Shown in pieces: positions 22,931-45,674 of a stretch of DNA of 64,000 nt (position 1 is the stretch's first letter; every line of letters begins with the position of its first letter). The notes beneath the pieces are model-generated. The model made no database searches. It was given only the letters and a program-made list of their open reading frames with translations, and had not been told where the DNA came from. Origin of the DNA: a bacterium (GTDB lineage Archaea > Thermoplasmatota > E2 > JACPAO01 > JAHFTW01); contig JAZJZE010000001.1 of assembly GCA_040390065.1 (NCBI GenBank), positions 357,769-421,768 of the forward strand, in the 5' to 3' direction. The position numbers were made by a program, and so were the translations under genes.

Positions 22931-23140
22931 TCAACCGCCACTGAACGCCGACAGCAGGACAAGGGTCTCGCCATCGACGACGGGCTCGTCCTCGGGGACC
23001 GGCGTCGAGCCGCGAATGGCAAGCGTGTGGTCCGGCGATTGACCGACGGCGCGAAGCACGTCCCCAACCGTCGCACCGGGCGACAAGGCGACGTCGCGGG
23101 GCGGCTCTCGGGCGGGTCGGAAGACAATGCGGACCTGCAA
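22931..23140 (-). CDS. Ubiquitin-like small archaeal modifier (SAMP/ThiS/MoaD family)
   Basis: 69 aa, TVGDVL...VPED..V.DG...LLSAFSGG with C-terminal di-Gly. Confidence 0.85.
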   Translation of the reverse strand: MQVRIVFRPAREPPRDVALSPGATVGDVLRAVGQSPDHTLAIRGSTPVPEDEPVVDGETLVLLSAFSGG

Positions 23141-23141
23141 G

Positions 23142-23224
23142 CGCCGAGGGCAGGATTTGAACCTGCAAATCCAGGGGACACTGGTTTTCGAGACCAGCGC
23201 AATACCGGGTTATGCGACCTCGGC
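23142..23224 (-). tRNA. tRNA-Ser(CGA)
   Basis: GCCGAGG...CTGGT-CTCGAAA-ACCAG, long variable arm, GTTCAAATC, CCTCGGC-G. Confidence 0.93.
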
Positions 23225-23640
23225 AGGTAAGTCGGCCGACTTGTGGCCGCTATTTCCAGGTTTCGTGCCGTGCGAGCGCGACGCGCGAGCCATCAGGGGG
23301 TCGCGGGGGGCGGTAAGCCCCCCCGCAGGTCCGCGGGGCCGCAGGCCCCGCTGCCCAAATGATCGACCTGTTTGCAGGTCGAGGGACACTGGTTTTCGAG
23401 ACCAGCGCAATACCGGGTTATGCGACCTCGGCAGGTAAGTCGGCCGACTTGTGGCCGCTATTTCCAGGTTTCGTGCCGTGCGAGCGCGACGCGCGAGCCA
23501 TCAGGGGGTCGCGGGGGGCGGTAAGCCCCCCCGCAGGTCCGCGGGGCCGCAGGCCCCGCTGCCCAAATGATCGACCTGTTTGCAGGTCGAGGGACACTGG
23601 TTTTCGAGACCAGCGCAATACCGGGTCATGCGACCTCGGC
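23175..23640 (-). repeat. 208-bp tandem repeat: 3 copies of the tRNA-Ser 5' 50 nt separated by 2 identical 158-bp hairpin cassettes
   Basis: GGGACACTGG...CGACCTCGGC starts at 23175, 23383 and 23591; third copy carries one SNP. Confidence 0.95.
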
Positions 23641-23745
23641 AGAAGGGCGCTGGGGCGGAGGCCAGGGCTCGCCTATATTCCCATTTCGAGGGGCCGCAGG
23701 TCGACCCACCCAAACCTCATGTGGGCGGCGCCGATAGGATACGCC

Positions 23746-24753
23746 GTGCGCAAGCGCCTGGCCATGGCCGCCCTCGTCCTCATGCTTCTGCCGGCCGTTC
23801 CGGCCCGCGCCGCCGACCCTGGCGACGGCATCGTGATCGCCGTTCTCGACACGGGCGTCGACTCGAGCCACCCGGAACTGAAGGACCGCGTCGAGCGCAT
23901 GAGTTTCTACCGATCCCCCATCCCGCCGGTTCCCGGCTTGCCAGACCCGACGACGCTTCAGCCGGACCCCGATGGCCACGGCACGGCGGCGGCGAGCGTC
24001 GCGGCGGCCAAGTCGTTCGGCGTCGCCTCCGGCGCCCGCATCCTGGACATGCAGGTCAGCGCCCGCTACACGCAAGGCGCCCTCGACCCGACGGCGGAGG
24101 AAGCGGCCACGCGTGCGATGGATGAACTGCTGCGCCACCACGGCGGCAACGGCACGGCGGGACCGCGCGTCGTGCTGCTGTCCTTCGCGAACAACTTGAC
24201 GGCATCCGGGGCCGCGACCTTGGCCGCGCAGGCGCACGACCTGTGGGATGCGGGCGTCCTTGTCATCGTGCCTGCGGGCAGCCACTCGCCGCTTCACGAC
24301 AGCCCATACGTCGTCACCGTCGGCGACCGCGACGCTACGTGTGCAGCGGGCGTTCCGGCGGCCGGCGTCCTCAAGCCCGACCTGGCGGCCGCGGCTCGCA
24401 ACGTCAAGGTGGCGACGCCTGGAACGCCCACGGGCGGCCAAGGCCAGGCGTCGGGCACCGCGTTTGCATCGGCGTCCGTCGCCGGGGCCGCGGCCCTCAT
24501 GTGGCAGGCCCGTCCTGGACTTCCCGTCGCCGCGCTCGCCGCCATCATGCGTGACACGGCGGCCGACAAGGCCGCAGCCGGTCCCGACGGGTGCACCGGT
24601 TTCGGCGCCTTGGACGCGGAGGCGGCCGTCGTCGCCGCGAAAGCCTGGAGCGATCCCGTTCCGCCGGGCACCCCATCAGCGGCCAAGTCGCCGATGCCGA
24701 TCGGCCCCTTGGTCGCGCTGGTCCTGTTGGCCTTGGCGGCTCGTCGGAGGTAG
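23746..24753 (+). CDS. Subtilisin-like (S8) surface protein, probably catalytically inactive
   Basis: AVLDTG, HGT, KPDLAA; GTAFA in place of GTSMA; C-terminal KSP-TM-RRR anchor. Confidence 0.8.
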   Translation: MRKRLAMAALVLMLLPAVPARAADPGDGIVIAVLDTGVDSSHPELKDRVERMSFYRSPIPPVPGLPDPTTLQPDPDGHGTAAASVAAAKSFGVASGARILDMQVSARYTQGALDPTAEEAATRAMDELLRHHGGNGTAGPRVVLLSFANNLTASGAATLAAQAHDLWDAGVLVIVPAGSHSPLHDSPYVVTVGDRDATCAAGVPAAGVLKPDLAAAARNVKVATPGTPTGGQGQASGTAFASASVAGAAALMWQARPGLPVAALAAIMRDTAADKAAAGPDGCTGFGALDAEAAVVAAKAWSDPVPPGTPSAAKSPMPIGPLVALVLLALAARRR

Positions 24754-40632: not shown

Positions 40633-41178
40633 ATGGCATCGGGTGGCAAAGCCAAGAAGATGCGCGGCAACCACACGCACGGACGCGGCAAGAAGGCCGG
40701 CCGTGGCGCGGGTCTGCAGGGCGGCCGCGGCCGCGCCGGCGCCAACAAGCACCGCTACCTCATGTTGCAGGTGCTCGGCGGCAAGCACGCCCACATGGCG
40801 GCCAAGCCGTGGGGCCGCATCGGCTTCAAGTACCGCAGCCGCGACGGCAACCCGAAGCCGGAGTCGCTCAACGTCGGTGACCTCGCCCTGGTCTTCCCGG
40901 GCAAGTCCGACATCGACCTGACGCTCGCGGGCTACGGCAAGTTGCTGGGTTCCGGCGACGTCGCTGGCAAGTTCACGGTCAAGGTGGAGTCGGCCTCGGC
41001 CGGCGCCATCGCGAAGGTCAAGAAGGCCGGCGGCAACGTCGTCCTCCCGGCCGGCGCCTCCCCAGAGGAGAAGGCCGCAGCGGCGAAGGCAGCCCAATCC
41101 AAGGCCGCGGCCGCCAAGCCCGCAGCAAAGGGTGCCCCCGCCAAGCCGGCGGACAAGCCCGCTCCGGCCAAGCCGTAG
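40633..41178 (+). CDS. rpl15: 50S ribosomal protein L15
   Basis: RG..THGRG, GGRGRAG, KLLGSG, AIAKVKKAGG. Confidence 0.95.
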   Translation: MASGGKAKKMRGNHTHGRGKKAGRGAGLQGGRGRAGANKHRYLMLQVLGGKHAHMAAKPWGRIGFKYRSRDGNPKPESLNVGDLALVFPGKSDIDLTLAGYGKLLGSGDVAGKFTVKVESASAGAIAKVKKAGGNVVLPAGASPEEKAAAAKAAQSKAAAAKPAAKGAPAKPADKPAPAKP

Positions 41179-41277
41179 ATAGGTCAGGCCCGTTTTCCCC
41201 TTCTTTCCCTTCCTTCAAGTCCGAGCCCTTAAGAGGGAACCCTCTTTGGGCGCAACAATCCCCGGCTGGTCCCACAC

Positions 41278-42870
41278 ATGGCAGACACGGAGAAACGCAG
41301 TTCCCTCTACGCACTGGAGCCCCTCATCAAGAGGTGGCCTGCGGTCACGAAGCCTGAGGGTCACGTCTCGTTCAAGACGAAGCTCCTCTGGACGACCATT
41401 TGTCTCCTGCTGTACTTCGCGCTGTCGAACATCCCGCTCTTCGGGGTGTCGAACCAGCAGCTCGACATCTTTGCGAGCTTCCGCGCCGTCTTGGCCGGCC
41501 AGTCCGGCACTTTGATGCACCTGGGCATCGGCCCCATCGTCACCGGGTCCATCGTGATGCAGCTCTTCACGGGCGCCAAGATCATCAAGCTCGACCTCAC
41601 GAAGGACGAGGACAAGGCGATCTACCAGGGCGCCCAGAAGATCATGGTCCTGCTGTTCATCTTCATCGAAGCCATCCCGCAAGTGTACGGCTTCCTCAAC
41701 CCGGACCCGAAGTTCATCTCCTGGTTTGGCAGCCACAACATCGGCGGCGGCGAGGCCTGGTCCCGCAGTGTCATCATCGCGCAGTTGGCTCTCGGCGCCA
41801 TCATCGTCTTCCTGATGGACGAACTCATCTCCAAGTGGGGTATCGGTTCGGGCATTTCGCTCTTCATCGCGGCCGGTGTGAGCCAGTCGCTGTTCCAAGG
41901 CACCTTGTCTTGGCAGCCGTCGAACGCGGGCCTTGGCAACCACTACAACCCCATCACGAACCCGCCCGTCGGGGCCATTCCCATGGCGGGATACGTGTTC
42001 TGGAACCGTGACTTGCAAAGCATGGTGCATGGGCAAGGCTTCGAGAACGTCTTCATCGGCGGCGGCAACTTCCCCAACCCACTCATCGCCTTCTTCGGCA
42101 CGATCATGATCTTCATGTTCGTGGTCTACGCGGAAGCAAGCCGCATCGAGTTGCCCCTCGCGCACGGCAAGGTCCGCGGCGCCCGCGGCCGCTACCCGCT
42201 GCGCCTCATCTACGCCTCGAACATCCCGGTCATCCTGATGGCCGCGCTGCTCGCGAACATCAACATCTTCAGCCTGCTTCTCTGGCAGCACCCAACGTTC
42301 AGTCACATCCCCGGCATCGGCCACTCCTGGTGGGTCGGCACGTACGAGACCGGCGGCGGCTCGACGCAGCCCATCGCCGGCGGCGCCTGGTACCTGCAGC
42401 AGTTCCGAGGATTGTCCGATTGGTTCCTGCCCCTGTTCGACCCGCGCTACAGTGGGCTTGCCCACGGCCACGTGTGGTGGCAGATCCTCATCAAGATCAC
42501 GTTGTTCCTGGGCCTCTTCATCGGCGGCTCCATCATGTTCGCCAAGTTCTGGGTCGACACGACGAACATGGGCCCCCATGACGTGGCCAAGCAGATCGAG
42601 AAATCCGGCATGCAGATTCCCGGCTTCCGCCGTGACCCGCGCGTGCTGGAGAAGGTCCTCGAACGCTACATTCCAACTCTTACCATCATCGGTGGTGCGA
42701 CGGTCGGTGCTCTGGCAGCCGTTGCCGACATGATCGGTACCGTCGGCCAGGCGTCCGGTACTGGATTGCTGCTCTGCGTCGGCATTTTCATGAGGATGTA
42801 CGAGCAGATTGCGAAGGAACAGGTCATGGAAATGCACCCCGTGCTCCGTGGCTTCTTCGGCGCGGAATAG
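41278..42870 (+). CDS. secY: Preprotein translocase subunit SecY
   Basis: LGIGPIVT, KWGIGSGISLFI, YASNIP, QIPGFR, GTGLLL. Confidence 0.97.
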   Translation: MADTEKRSSLYALEPLIKRWPAVTKPEGHVSFKTKLLWTTICLLLYFALSNIPLFGVSNQQLDIFASFRAVLAGQSGTLMHLGIGPIVTGSIVMQLFTGAKIIKLDLTKDEDKAIYQGAQKIMVLLFIFIEAIPQVYGFLNPDPKFISWFGSHNIGGGEAWSRSVIIAQLALGAIIVFLMDELISKWGIGSGISLFIAAGVSQSLFQGTLSWQPSNAGLGNHYNPITNPPVGAIPMAGYVFWNRDLQSMVHGQGFENVFIGGGNFPNPLIAFFGTIMIFMFVVYAEASRIELPLAHGKVRGARGRYPLRLIYASNIPVILMAALLANINIFSLLLWQHPTFSHIPGIGHSWWVGTYETGGGSTQPIAGGAWYLQQFRGLSDWFLPLFDPRYSGLAHGHVWWQILIKITLFLGLFIGGSIMFAKFWVDTTNMGPHDVAKQIEKSGMQIPGFRRDPRVLEKVLERYIPTLTIIGGATVGALAAVADMIGTVGQASGTGLLLCVGIFMRMYEQIAKEQVMEMHPVLRGFFGAE

Positions 42871-43248
42871 CGCGCAGCGCGTTCCGCCGACGGGAGCCGG
42901 AGCCGGGCGCATCCAGGCCAGGTTCCCGCAATGTGCTCGCAGCGAGGCCCGCAGGGCCGAGCGGACCTACGGCTGCGCCTCAGCGCGGCCGTAGGGCACG
43001 AAGGGCGACGCCGCAGCGTCGCCCGACAGCAGATTGCGAAGGAACAGGTCATGGAGATGCATCCGGTTCTGCGCGGCTTCTTCGGGGCCGAATAGCGCGC
43101 AGCGCTTCGGCCTTCGAAGGCCGTGCAGAACAGCGCGCCCGAGCGATGCGAAGCGAGCGTGGGCAAGCGGACCCTGCGGTTGCGCTTCAGCGCGACCGCA
43201 GGGGTGGCGAGCGACGCCGCAGCGTCGCGAGCCGTGCTCCGTGGCTTC
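42803..43248 (+). repeat. secY 3'-end duplications interleaved with two homologous hairpin cassettes
   Basis: 42803-42880 repeated at 43028-43105 (8 synonymous differences); CCGTGCTCCGTGGCTTC at 42839 and 43232. Confidence 0.9.
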
Positions 43249-43298
43249 ACCCGACCCTGCGCAACATTCAGGAAAGCCCGGGTTGGTCAGGCGAAACC

Positions 43299-43871
43299 TT
43301 GTCGGCCCTCAACGTCGGCCAGCCCCGCCGCTCGTACGCCCACCCCGAGCCCTACCAGCGGTACCGCCAGCCCCTGCAGGCCAAGTGGAGGCCATTCATC
43401 CTGGAGCGTGACAAACGGCGCTGCCGCGTGTGCGGTGGCCGGGACGACTTGGAGATGGCGCACATCACGGATGCCGTCGCGTTCGTCCGCGCCGCCGGGT
43501 CGCACCGCGGCGTGACCTTCTCCTACCGCTGGGACAACCTCATGACGCTCTGCGATGGGTGCCACGCCGTGAGCCATTCGCATCGATGGAGGGCGGAGGA
43601 CGTGCCCCGCCGGGAGGCCGTGGCCGCGCTCCAGGAACAATTGCGCGGGCTGCGCGGTTGGTCGTCGCCGTTTGCGGTCTTGCCCCCTGCCCTCGTCCCA
43701 CCCGCCATGGCACCGCGCCGCAGCTTCCACGACACCATCCGGCTGTCGCCGCTGCTGCCCTTCCCGACCTTCGCCCGTTACGCCGCGGATGGCGGGCTCG
43801 TATTCGGGGATGCGGAGGCCTCTCCCGGGCAAGGCCATCTTCCCCTAGTGGCCGGGCCCTCGGGCTTTTGA
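43299..43871 (+). CDS. HNH endonuclease
   Basis: ILERDKRRCRVCG...LEMAHI...DNLMTLCDGCH; TTG start inferred (frame open from 42933). Confidence 0.85.
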   Translation: MSALNVGQPRRSYAHPEPYQRYRQPLQAKWRPFILERDKRRCRVCGGRDDLEMAHITDAVAFVRAAGSHRGVTFSYRWDNLMTLCDGCHAVSHSHRWRAEDVPRREAVAALQEQLRGLRGWSSPFAVLPPALVPPAMAPRRSFHDTIRLSPLLPFPTFARYAADGGLVFGDAEASPGQGHLPLVAGPSGF

Positions 43872-43874
43872 GGG

Positions 43875-45674
43875 ATGCTGGCGTTTGCCCGACCCGTGTT
43901 GATGGGTCGGCGGTTCACTGTCCTGAACCTTGCCGCCGTTGCCGTCGGCGCGGTCGCTGGGCTCGCCGCAGTCGGCCTGCGCTATGCCATCAGTTGGGTG
44001 CAGCGCGTCGCGTTCCAGGGTGATGCAGGGGCCGCGACACCGCGCGAGGAGAACACGTTCGTGGTGTCCCGCTGGGGCTGGCTCGTCATCCTCGTGCCAG
44101 CCCTGGGCGGCCTCGCCATCGCAGCCATCCGCCGGTACTGGCCCGCCATCCGCCAACACGGCGTCACGGAGGTCATGGCGGCCGTGCAGGCCAAGGGCGG
44201 CATCCTGCGTGCGCGTTCCAGCGTCGGCCATGCACTCCTGTCCGCCATCACCGTCGGCACGGGGGGCTCGACGGGGCGCGAGGGCCCCATCGGCTACATC
44301 GGCGCGACCTTGGGCTCCAGTGTGGCGCGCCGCCTCGGCCTGACTCCACGCGACATCAAGATCCTGCTCGGCTGCGGTTTCTCCGCTGGCATCGCCGCGA
44401 GCTTCAATGCCCCGCTTGGCGCCGTCCTCATGGCCCTCGAGCTCATCGTCCCCGAGTTCTCCACGCACGCGTTCATCCCGTTGGTCGGCGCCACCGTCGT
44501 CGGTGTCACCATAGGCAACATGCTGCTTGCCGGCCACGCCACGTTTGCCGTGCCCGCCTTCGTCTTCCATTCCTCGTGGGAACTCATCCTGTACGTCGTC
44601 GTTGGCATCGTCTGCGGCTTCGCCGCCGTGGCCTTCATCCGCCTCATCGCCTGGACTTACTACGCCTGGGCCAAGTCGCGTATGGCCGATTTCGCCAAGC
44701 CGGTCCTCGGAGGTCTGCTCGTCGGCATCCTCGGCTTCACCATGTTCTGGGCCACGTCGCGCAGTTCCACCATGCATGACTACCACGTCTTTGGTACGGG
44801 CTATGCCACGATGACGAACGTGCTGGCCACCCCGGCCGACGCGTACGCCCCATTGTTGCCGATCCTGGCCATCCTCGTCTTGGCCAAGCCGATTGCGACT
44901 GCGATCACCATCGGCTCCGGTGGCGCCGGCGGCATGTTCTCCGTCAGCCTCTACCAAGGCGCATTGTGGGGCGGCCTCATCGGCATTGCAGGGCATGCAA
45001 TCGCCCCGTCCATCGTCGTCAACCCGGCCTCGTATGCCCTCGTGGGGATGGGCGCCTTCTATGCTGCCTCGACGCGCGCCACCTTGACAGCCATCGTCAT
45101 GATCACGGAACTGACGCGCGACTACGCCATCGTGGCGCCCCTCATGCTTGCCGCCGTCACCGCCGACGCAGTCTCCGTCCGCCTCTCCAAGGAGACCGTG
45201 TACACCCTGAAGCTCACGCAGACCGGCGTCATCTACGAGCACGACCGGGTACAGAGTCCGTTGGACTTCCTCGTCGTGCGCGACGTCATGACCAAGGAGG
45301 TGCACGGACTCCCCTCCGACCTGTCGGTGGGCGAAGCCTTCAACCGCATGATTGACTTGGGCCACACGGGATACCCTGTTCTGGGCCCCGACGGGAAGCT
45401 GAAAGGTGTGGTGACCAGGCGAGACCTCTCCAAGCAGCTGCATGCCGGAAAGGGGGCGGAATCGCTTGGAAACGTCATTTCGGGCCTCACCATCACAGCC
45501 CTTGCCGGCGAGACGTTGTACCGCGCCCGCGACCGGCTGCACCGCGAAGGCATCGGCCGCCTCGTCGTCGTCGACGCCGTCGACCGCACGCAGATCGTCG
45601 GCATCCTGACCCGGAGCGACCTCCTGCGCGCCGAGGCCGAACGCGGCGTCGAGCACGAGGACGAGTGGTCGTGA
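43875..45674 (+). CDS. CLC voltage-gated chloride channel/antiporter with CBS domains
   Basis: GGSTGREGP, FNAPL, GSGGAGGMF, GTGY, two C-terminal CBS domains. Confidence 0.95.
   Translation: MLAFARPVLMGRRFTVLNLAAVAVGAVAGLAAVGLRYAISWVQRVAFQGDAGAATPREENTFVVSRWGWLVILVPALGGLAIAAIRRYWPAIRQHGVTEVMAAVQAKGGILRARSSVGHALLSAITVGTGGSTGREGPIGYIGATLGSSVARRLGLTPRDIKILLGCGFSAGIAASFNAPLGAVLMALELIVPEFSTHAFIPLVGATVVGVTIGNMLLAGHATFAVPAFVFHSSWELILYVVVGIVCGFAAVAFIRLIAWTYYAWAKSRMADFAKPVLGGLLVGILGFTMFWATSRSSTMHDYHVFGTGYATMTNVLATPADAYAPLLPILAILVLAKPIATAITIGSGGAGGMFSVSLYQGALWGGLIGIAGHAIAPSIVVNPASYALVGMGAFYAASTRATLTAIVMITELTRDYAIVAPLMLAAVTADAVSVRLSKETVYTLKLTQTGVIYEHDRVQSPLDFLVVRDVMTKEVHGLPSDLSVGEAFNRMIDLGHTGYPVLGPDGKLKGVVTRRDLSKQLHAGKGAESLGNVISGLTITALAGETLYRARDRLHREGIGRLVVVDAVDRTQIVGILTRSDLLRAEAERGVEHEDEWS

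Follow-up and report, generated by a model that had tools for sequence, protein, structure and literature searches.

Displaced secY ends behind non-coding hairpin cassettes in an uncultured Thermoplasmatota archaeon: a probable case of insertion with long target duplication

The DNA analyzed here (the window) is a stretch of 64,000 nucleotides (nt) from contig JAZJZE010000001.1 of assembly GCA_040390065.1 (positions 357,769 to 421,768). It comes from an uncultured Thermoplasmatota archaeon whose genome, denoted G000, is 89% complete and has a genome-wide GC content of 67%; like all genomes compared with it, G000 is a metagenome assembly. The subject of this analysis is an array of partial gene-end copies and non-coding cassettes located between secY and a gene for an HNH-domain protein, all on the forward strand. 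The secY gene, identified in the list of open reading frames (ORFs) and by the Pfam profiles SecY (4.3e-70) and Plug_translocon, is the final gene of an archaeal ribosomal-protein operon (41278-42870). Its working 3' end, denoted type A (42803-42880, stop codon at 42868-42870), is followed by cassette 1 (42881-43027); a displaced secY 3' end of type B (43028-43105, stop codon at 43093-43095); cassette 2 (43106-43231); and A', a remnant of a type-A end (43232-43248) that is identical to 42839-42855 at all 17 positions. A and B are direct repeats of 78 nt with 90% identity. Next comes the gene for a stand-alone HNH protein of 190 amino acids (43299-43871), which was recognized by the HNH motif within an open frame running from a likely TTG start codon at 43299 to the stop at 43871.

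Both cassettes are non-coding, and the ORFs that overlap these 126-147-nt segments produced no Pfam match. Cassette 1 contains a small hairpin (42946-42958), a GCGGAC box (42961-42966), hairpin 1 (42966-42995) and hairpin 2 (43005-43022), and cassette 2 contains a GCGGAC box (43168-43173), hairpin 1 (43172-43203) and hairpin 2 (43211-43228). Hairpin 1 is present in both cassettes, with two compensatory pair changes between them, whereas the 18-nt hairpin 2 is identical in the two. The secY-like sequence restarts 5 nt past hairpin 2 in cassette 1 and 3 nt past it in cassette 2. Repeat and sequence analysis confirmed all the coordinates that a preceding sequence-only reading of the window had assigned to the secY-end repeats, the cassettes, the 17-nt match and the HNH ORF, and its description of two cassettes that end in the same two hairpins, with secY-matching sequence within 3-6 nt of the last one, also proved accurate.

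The eight differences between A and B are all synonymous, an outcome not matched once when eight substitutions were placed at random 20000 times. Furthermore, each cassette opens with an inverted partial copy of the secY end that precedes it, and this end pairs with the copy. In the first unit, the pairing between end A and the inverted partial copy that opens cassette 1 yields a hairpin around the secY stop codon (42846-42900, limits approximate; RNA fold z = -4.5), and in the second unit, a long hairpin surrounds the stop codon of copy B (43066-43131; arms 43066-43077 and 43120-43131 plus inner pairs; fold z = -6.6). Because compensating changes keep the pairing in both units, each copy (A or B) and the beginning of the cassette behind it (1 or 2, respectively) look like a unit that evolved together as a working gene end. 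Divergence between the cassettes of neighboring units far exceeds that between the gene ends.

The last 6 nt of A', GGCTTC, coincide with native sequence upstream of the HNH gene in related genomes, where an alignment of the HNH upstream regions reveals a shared motif starting GGCTTCAC. Given that GGCTTC is common to the end of A' and the native HNH upstream region, this junction looks like a microhomology deletion, and the preferred interpretation of A' is a displaced end, originally longer, that lost sequence through a deletion between two copies of GGCTTC. The region 42300-44000 is covered, with no differences, by a single Logan contig of 12254 nt from run X1; this is the one DNA run in which the stretch was found, no RNA run being listed, and it is probably the source sample, so the contig represents a second assembly rather than independent data. 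The same run contains a 180-nt low-depth contig that matches 43171-43248 (cassette 2 and A') with seven differences and then continues into further secY-end-like sequence, so that a longer displaced end may have been kept by a related strain. Arrays resembling the secY array were found in seven other assemblies, which argues against an assembly artefact.

The 3' flank of secY was examined in detail in 17 genomes. In eight of these (G000, G001, G004, G006, G007, G020, G022 and G026), extra copies of the secY end lie behind hairpin cassettes of 73-150 nt, and both the breakpoints and the cassette sequences differ among the eight. The arrays are of the form A-B-A' in G000 and G006 (in the latter, A' is identical to A at 26 of 27 positions), A-B-C-A' in G007 (39 of 39 positions; stop codons TAG, TGA and TAA) and A-A' in G022 (29 of 29 positions, after which TAG is changed to TGA). 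One decayed copy is present in G020, a 48-nt copy with seven synonymous differences in G001, and an extra secY-end copy in G004; in G026, a member of another family, seven codons differ synonymously, including a TCG/AGC switch of serine codons. Copies B and C of G007 are fully synonymous, again including a serine switch (AGC/TCC). Altogether, in seven comparisons from six genomes, the working and displaced secY ends show 45 synonymous, 2 nonsynonymous and 3 stop-to-stop codon differences. The array of G007 divides its assembly between contigs C5 and C8.

Sister genomes also include the empty sites that the sequence-only reading had proposed to look for: the other 9 of the 17 genomes have a single secY end, and the interval from there to the HNH gene is occupied by unrelated ORFs or by a pyrimidine-rich tract. 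In the cassette-free state, the pyrimidine-rich tract comes after secY, and in G006, G020, G022 and G026 such a tract follows the most downstream displaced copy. The duplication-free spacers of G002, G009, G005, G008, G011, G013, G015 and G024 span 0.6-1.6 kb and contain differing small ORFs, which indicates that the site is variable in gene content too; one small ORF is common to G002 and G009. An extra secY match in G021 turned out to represent two overlapping contig ends and not a duplication.

The same layout was detected at other loci of G000. All ORF ends of this genome were scanned for recurrence of the last 12 residues before a stop codon within 900 nt, with identity required at 9 of the 12 residues, and 14 of the 39 resulting matches were inspected at the DNA level. 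The succession of working end, insert and displaced end was found at nine further protein genes, with inserts of 44-835 nt, as well as at three tRNA genes; in addition, one intergenic site contains a duplication identical at 39 of 39 positions. Summed over the nine non-secY protein loci, there are 36 synonymous, 8 nonsynonymous and 4 stop-to-stop differences. At the locus C3:89854 (contigs of G000 are denoted C1, C3 and so on), 9 of the 14 sense codons differ, all silently, and the insert contains a GCGGAC box and hairpins like those of the secY cassettes. At C43:31336-32288, a gene end encoding ...IFDRYLFREV occurs three times with a spacing of 125-128 nt, each time behind a GCGGAC-box or CCGGAC-box hairpin. 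At C9:147433-148967, an identical 33-nt gene-end duplication surrounds an 835-nt insert that contains a whole lipoprotein-like ORF, and no terminal hairpin is evident at the right junction. The scan match at C1:19103 probably reflects a C-terminus common to two ribosomal stalk proteins encoded side by side.

The likely sources of the alternative gene ends were sought among the working ends of related genomes. Over its last 48 nt, the working secY end of G000 differs at a single site from the working end of G008; upstream of this segment, the G000 gene is closer to those of G009, G004 and others. Between copy B and the working end of G009, there are three differing sites in addition to the stop codon. 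Likewise, at C3:89854, the working end matches G003 at 43 of 45 positions and the displaced end is of the AGC-serine type found in G005, G009 and G012; all 12 congeners have an empty site at this locus, with the gene end present once and no insert. Judging from these matches, both members of a pair are real functional alleles of the genus. That both the working and the displaced ends match working alleles of sister species shows involvement of DNA from relatives, which must have entered, or left, these sites, and given this pattern of functional alleles, a decaying local duplicate does not suffice as an explanation.

Among the tRNA genes, the duplicated targets include segments that extend from the anticodon arm to the 3' end and from the T arm to the 3' end. 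In the case of tRNA-Ser(CGA), which lies within the window on the reverse strand (23141-23224; ARAGORN and Rfam tRNA), the 5' half is present three times (23175-23226, 23383-23434 and 23591-23642). The copies alternate with two identical tandem units of 155 nt, annotated on the forward strand, that belong to a family of hairpin elements with 27 copies in G000: unit 1 (23227-23381) ends in a terminal hairpin, with the displaced tRNA 5' half starting 1 nt later, and unit 2 (23435-23589) is its tandem copy. An Rfam scan of 23050-23750 yielded the tRNA and otherwise only chance-level matches. The upstream (promoter) region of the working tRNA copy is supplied by the hairpin element; the third 5' half differs at 1 nt, and its upstream region looks like the native, TATA-like one.

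This main insert family consists of elements of about 175 nt, with four or five GC hairpins and a constant terminal hairpin. Besides the 27 copies in G000, there are 20 copies in G008 and 7-9 in each of four other congeners, and the motif is represented in 14 of the 24 genomes of the family, the reversed-pattern control for the terminal-hairpin motif giving 0-1 matches. Lineage-specific subfamilies are distinguished by co-varying stems (for example, CCTG...CAGG versus CCTTC...GAAGG). For 15 of the 27 copies in G000, a 19-89-nt duplication of the upstream DNA begins 0-7 nt past the terminal hairpin; in one compound tRNA copy, the duplication begins 55 nt past it. Duplications accompany 13 of the 15 copies that are missing the canonical 5' part, compared with 2 of the 12 full-length copies. 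Another dispersed repeat of about 100-260 nt, represented at C9:217886-218145 (reverse strand) downstream of an acyl-CoA-dehydrogenase-like gene end, was matched by BLAST some 30 times in G000 and about 20 times in G004, and adjoins several of the 27-copy elements.

The secY cassettes belong to a looser family, in which the GCGGAC box directly precedes an 11-14-bp hairpin of variable sequence; inverted versions of such box hairpins sit inside the 27-copy elements. BLAST searches of G000 with whole cassettes identified only one further partial copy, and motif-plus-hairpin scans were needed to recognize the families. A loose scan for the GCGGAC box with a hairpin returned 238 matches among 3510 boxes, mostly spurious, and was replaced by a stricter one, with 53 matches, about 12-15 of them convincing by eye. 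The hairpin part of cassette 2 has a related copy after the thermosome gene (C3:33425-33483). The possibility raised against the sequence-only reading by its own author, that the cassettes are abundant genome-wide repeats of the repetitive extragenic palindromic (REP) kind unrelated to the HNH gene, was borne out in part: the cassettes are dispersed and unlinked to HNH, but only moderately abundant.

Family searches in G000, an 89% complete genome, detected no matches to RVT_1, Y1_Tnp, IS110 or TnpB. The reverse transcriptase profile PF00078 had no match in G000 and a match in 1 of the 41 genomes searched, and the Y1 profile PF01797 had none in G000 or in any of the 24 family genomes, with matches in 6 of 14 known genomes as a control. 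Six tyrosine-recombinase matches were found in G000, none of these on the contig of the window, in keeping with the initial observation that no integrase, transposase or reverse transcriptase is encoded nearby. No recombinase ORF was detected in the secY inserts of the eight array genomes. The non-secY inserts either are non-coding, at 44-308 nt, or contain unrelated small ORFs, the ORFs of the larger inserts lying outside the family scans. No common attachment (att) core was found, the duplicated segments differing in sequence and length at every locus.

The HNH protein matches PHROG HNH families with E-values down to 2e-8 and scores 17.9 bits with Pfam HNH, under the cut-off of 21.4; the alignment of its homologs shows that the C-terminal half is a conserved domain of unknown function. 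Among the 41 genomes searched, homologs with 59-75% identity are present, in a single copy, in 19 of the 24 family genomes and in none of the 16 genomes outside the family. The gene is conserved in 11 of the 12 congeners, and the single congener in which it is missing is 65% complete. In a large protein collection, 88 close relatives (at least 56% identity) were found, the named ones originating from Thermoplasmatota metagenome-assembled genomes and one genome labelled Halobacteriales. In 12 genomes, including G000, secY and the HNH gene share a contig, the latter lying 0.3-3 kb farther downstream, and in G021 and G007, the two genes are linked through overlapping or repeat-broken contigs, for a total of 14 linked genomes. 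Five of these 14 have arrays and nine have none. G001 and G004 have secY arrays without an adjacent HNH gene, and in G026, which is 90% complete and has an array, neither a protein search nor a profile of ten homologs detected an HNH homolog. The single-copy, conserved and syntenic distribution suggests vertical inheritance, and the HNH gene looks like a conserved neighbor that is a bystander to the array. In G004, the HNH homolog (C7:84305-84834, on a contig other than that of secY) aligns as two overlapping segments that lie in different frames, a likely sign of a frameshift; in G007, the frame of the homolog (C8:4009-4545) holds one TGA codon.

We consider it probable that the secY array is a local product of a genome-wide process, the insertion of non-coding hairpin DNA with long target duplication. 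In such an event, a short, GC-rich, hairpin-ended piece of non-coding DNA would be inserted at the end of a functional sequence, resulting in a complete end upstream and the old end displaced downstream, and at secY, at least two successive events of this type would have produced the A - cassette 1 - B - cassette 2 - A' arrangement. At least part of each unit, that is, gene end plus cassette, would have come from a conspecific or related chromosome. The left join would most likely be formed by homologous recombination inside the conserved secY gene, whereas the right join would connect the base of the terminal hairpin of the insert to a site located 17-78 nt upstream of the resident stop codon, leaving the resident end behind. 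Subsequently, A' would have been shortened by microhomology deletion, and unequal exchange between copies could have generated identical tandem units. The stop-codon hairpins probably act at the RNA 3' end and would travel with their own gene end. We infer this order of events, the recombination with foreign DNA and the mechanism of joining from the anatomy of the arrays, their recurrence, the synonymous pattern, the allele matches and the hairpin junctions, along with the absence of known transposase genes. The second possibility offered by the sequence-only reading, in which the array records repeated insertions that each restored the end of secY, thus survives in substance, although the process is not specific to secY and needs no secY-targeting element.

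Several observations weigh against this explanation. No enzyme, circle or donor was seen, and recombination would be expected to work poorly across stretches of 17-80 nt that are 85-90% identical. In G000, G006, G007 and G022, the terminal A' is of the same type as the working end, which requires either conspecific donors or true target duplication, so that a single, uniform history cannot be assumed for the arrays. In G008, a flanking duplication accompanies at most 2 of the 19 element copies examined, which implies that movement of the element as such need not yield a duplication, and the cargo-carrying duplications at C9 rc460145 and C1:130412 have no evident terminal hairpin. The scan of ORF ends is biased toward conserved, that is, synonymous pairs by the requirement for identity at 9 of 12 residues, and metagenome assemblies are the sole source of genomes.

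Two rival explanations assign the central role to the HNH protein. In the first possibility raised by the sequence-only reading, the array would be a set of scaffolds and guides for an RNA-guided nuclease similar to IscB/HEARO, the cassettes being the scaffolds and the secY stretches that follow them the guides. The placement of secY-matching sequence within 3-5 nt of the last hairpin fits this scheme, and the best NCBIfam match of the HNH domain, albeit weak, is indeed IscB. However, this match to guided_IscB, at 26.6 bits against a cut-off of 175, covers only positions 179-240 of the 314 in the profile; no RuvC or bridge-helix part was detected in the 190-amino-acid protein; and an Rfam scan of 41000-45000 produced three chance-level matches and no HEARO. 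Moreover, each purported guide is a whole gene end that has a stop codon and a pairing partner of its own, such ends occur also at HNH-free loci, and the cassettes that would be sought upstream of HNH homologs are absent from this position in 9 of the 14 linked genomes. With arrays in only the other five, and additional arrays that lack an HNH neighbor, we regard the scaffold-plus-guide scheme as extremely improbable. If, instead, the HNH protein were a free-standing homing endonuclease, it would cut sensitive alleles of the secY end, and repair from a donor would bring in a recoded, resistant end together with a cassette, untidy repair leaving the old end behind. The location of the HNH gene downstream of secY in all 14 linked genomes is compatible with homing, and alternating allele types with purely synonymous differences are the expected look of target-site immunity. 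Nevertheless, homing appears quite unlikely given that the HNH gene is conserved rather than sporadic, that secY arrays exist without an adjacent HNH gene or, in G026, without any found, and that the layout recurs at nine or more other protein genes and three tRNA genes in a genome with a single HNH-domain match, the one beside secY.

The remaining alternatives do not depend on this nuclease, or do so only optionally. Tandem accretion of site-specific integrative elements, with a replacement secY end carried in attP and the elements later decayed or mobilized in trans as miniature derivatives, would account for synonymous replacement ends with displaced fragments downstream, the classical signature of such integration, and the tRNA targets that include 3'-end segments, as well as the six tyrosine-recombinase matches in the genome, are in line with it. 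We nonetheless find it unlikely because the secY inserts of the eight array genomes encode no recombinase, the loci have no common att core, one tRNA gene is duplicated in its 5' half, and no recombinase match is located on the contig of the window. Alternatively, slippage or unequal exchange at GC-rich hairpins could have duplicated the sequence locally in tandem, with later decay and without any foreign or mobile DNA. Support for this scenario comes from the identical tandem units at tRNA-Ser, C5:296832 and C43, and hairpins can stall replication forks. Decay, however, should result mostly in nonsynonymous changes and indels, as opposed to the 45 synonymous and 2 nonsynonymous differences at secY; both end types match working alleles of other species; and adjacent cassettes have diverged far more than the gene ends, all of which makes purely local duplication very improbable. 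Finally, the hairpin-ended inserts could be a new type of archaeal mobile DNA that moves by a one-ended, homology-assisted route and needs no known transposase. A nuclease, for which the family-restricted HNH protein acting in trans would be a candidate as the sole HNH-domain match in the genome, would cut exactly where the terminal hairpin begins to pair, at its base; the element would take part of its flank along, and homology of this flank would guide its return to the same conserved gene end in other chromosomes or species, giving rise to the observed layout. This we consider doubtful.

Insertion with long target duplication, the process that we favor, reportedly was recognized by Nobusato et al. 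in 2000. Furuta, Abe and Kobayashi 2010 (PMC2853133) describe bacterial insertions of restriction-modification genes flanked by repeats of 30 to >400 bp, which often span stop or start codons, so that the target gene stays intact, without a transposase; tandem amplification through the repeats occurs, and the mechanism is stated to be unknown. Their screen kept no archaeal case, and none was met in a limited search of the literature. Similarly to these insertions, the secY insert is flanked by long, variable repeats that are single-copy at empty sites, and the duplications described here span 17-89 nt, most of them exceeding 30 nt, compared with the >30 bp of the Furuta screen. Unlike the bacterial cases, those described here come from an archaeal host, most of the inserts are 44-175-nt stretches of non-coding hairpin DNA with a precise hairpin terminus, and there are arrays of three or four copies that differ synonymously. 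The same paper cites IS1630, an IS30 family member from Mycoplasma, which generates target duplications of 19-26 bp via a DDE transposase and inverted-repeat ends. Long, variable target duplications are a shared feature, whereas no terminal inverted repeats or transposase were seen at the loci analyzed here.

Other known systems resemble the secY array in part. The IscB/HEARO (OMEGA) systems resemble it in having an HNH domain and, upstream, structured non-coding DNA placed directly next to target-like sequence, but the nucleases of these systems are proteins of about 400-500 amino acids with a split RuvC, a bridge helix and HNH, whereas here there is an HNH domain alone, no HEARO, and cassettes that are unlinked to the gene. 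When prophages or islands integrate at icd (e14, phage 21) or at tRNA genes, the incoming DNA supplies the working end. The old end is likewise displaced downstream, and the differences are silent; in contrast to such integration, the inserts described here encode no integrase, have no att core, are about 100 nt long and occupy many unrelated targets in one genome. REP sequences and bacterial interspersed mosaic elements (BIMEs), which are associated with REP-associated tyrosine transposases (RAYTs), and palindromic elements derived from IS200/IS605 are dispersed and modular, and often lie after genes. A short box (here GCGGAC) followed by a variable, co-varying hairpin is a point of similarity with REP/BIME, but the Y1 HUH transposase was found neither in G000 nor in any of the 24 family genomes, and the copy number is in the tens rather than hundreds; moreover, such elements are not known to make long duplications. 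A retroelement resembling short interspersed nuclear elements, mobilized by target-primed reverse transcription, would have a precise 3' end, be truncated on the 5' side and generate target duplications of variable length. These features are all seen here, but no reverse transcriptase was found in G000.

The secY structure is real and unusual, and we read it as a clear archaeal variant, built from non-coding DNA, of a known kind of insertion whose mechanism has not been solved. In genome annotation, displaced ends and their cassettes should not be taken for guide arrays, small ORFs or assembly errors, and they can break assemblies, as in G007. If the proposed explanation is correct, uncultured Thermoplasmatota would show frequent, tidy insertion with long target duplication, whereby even the end of the essential secY gene is exchanged between species, and the hairpin junctions, truncated copies and silent-only differences would provide handles on the mechanism.

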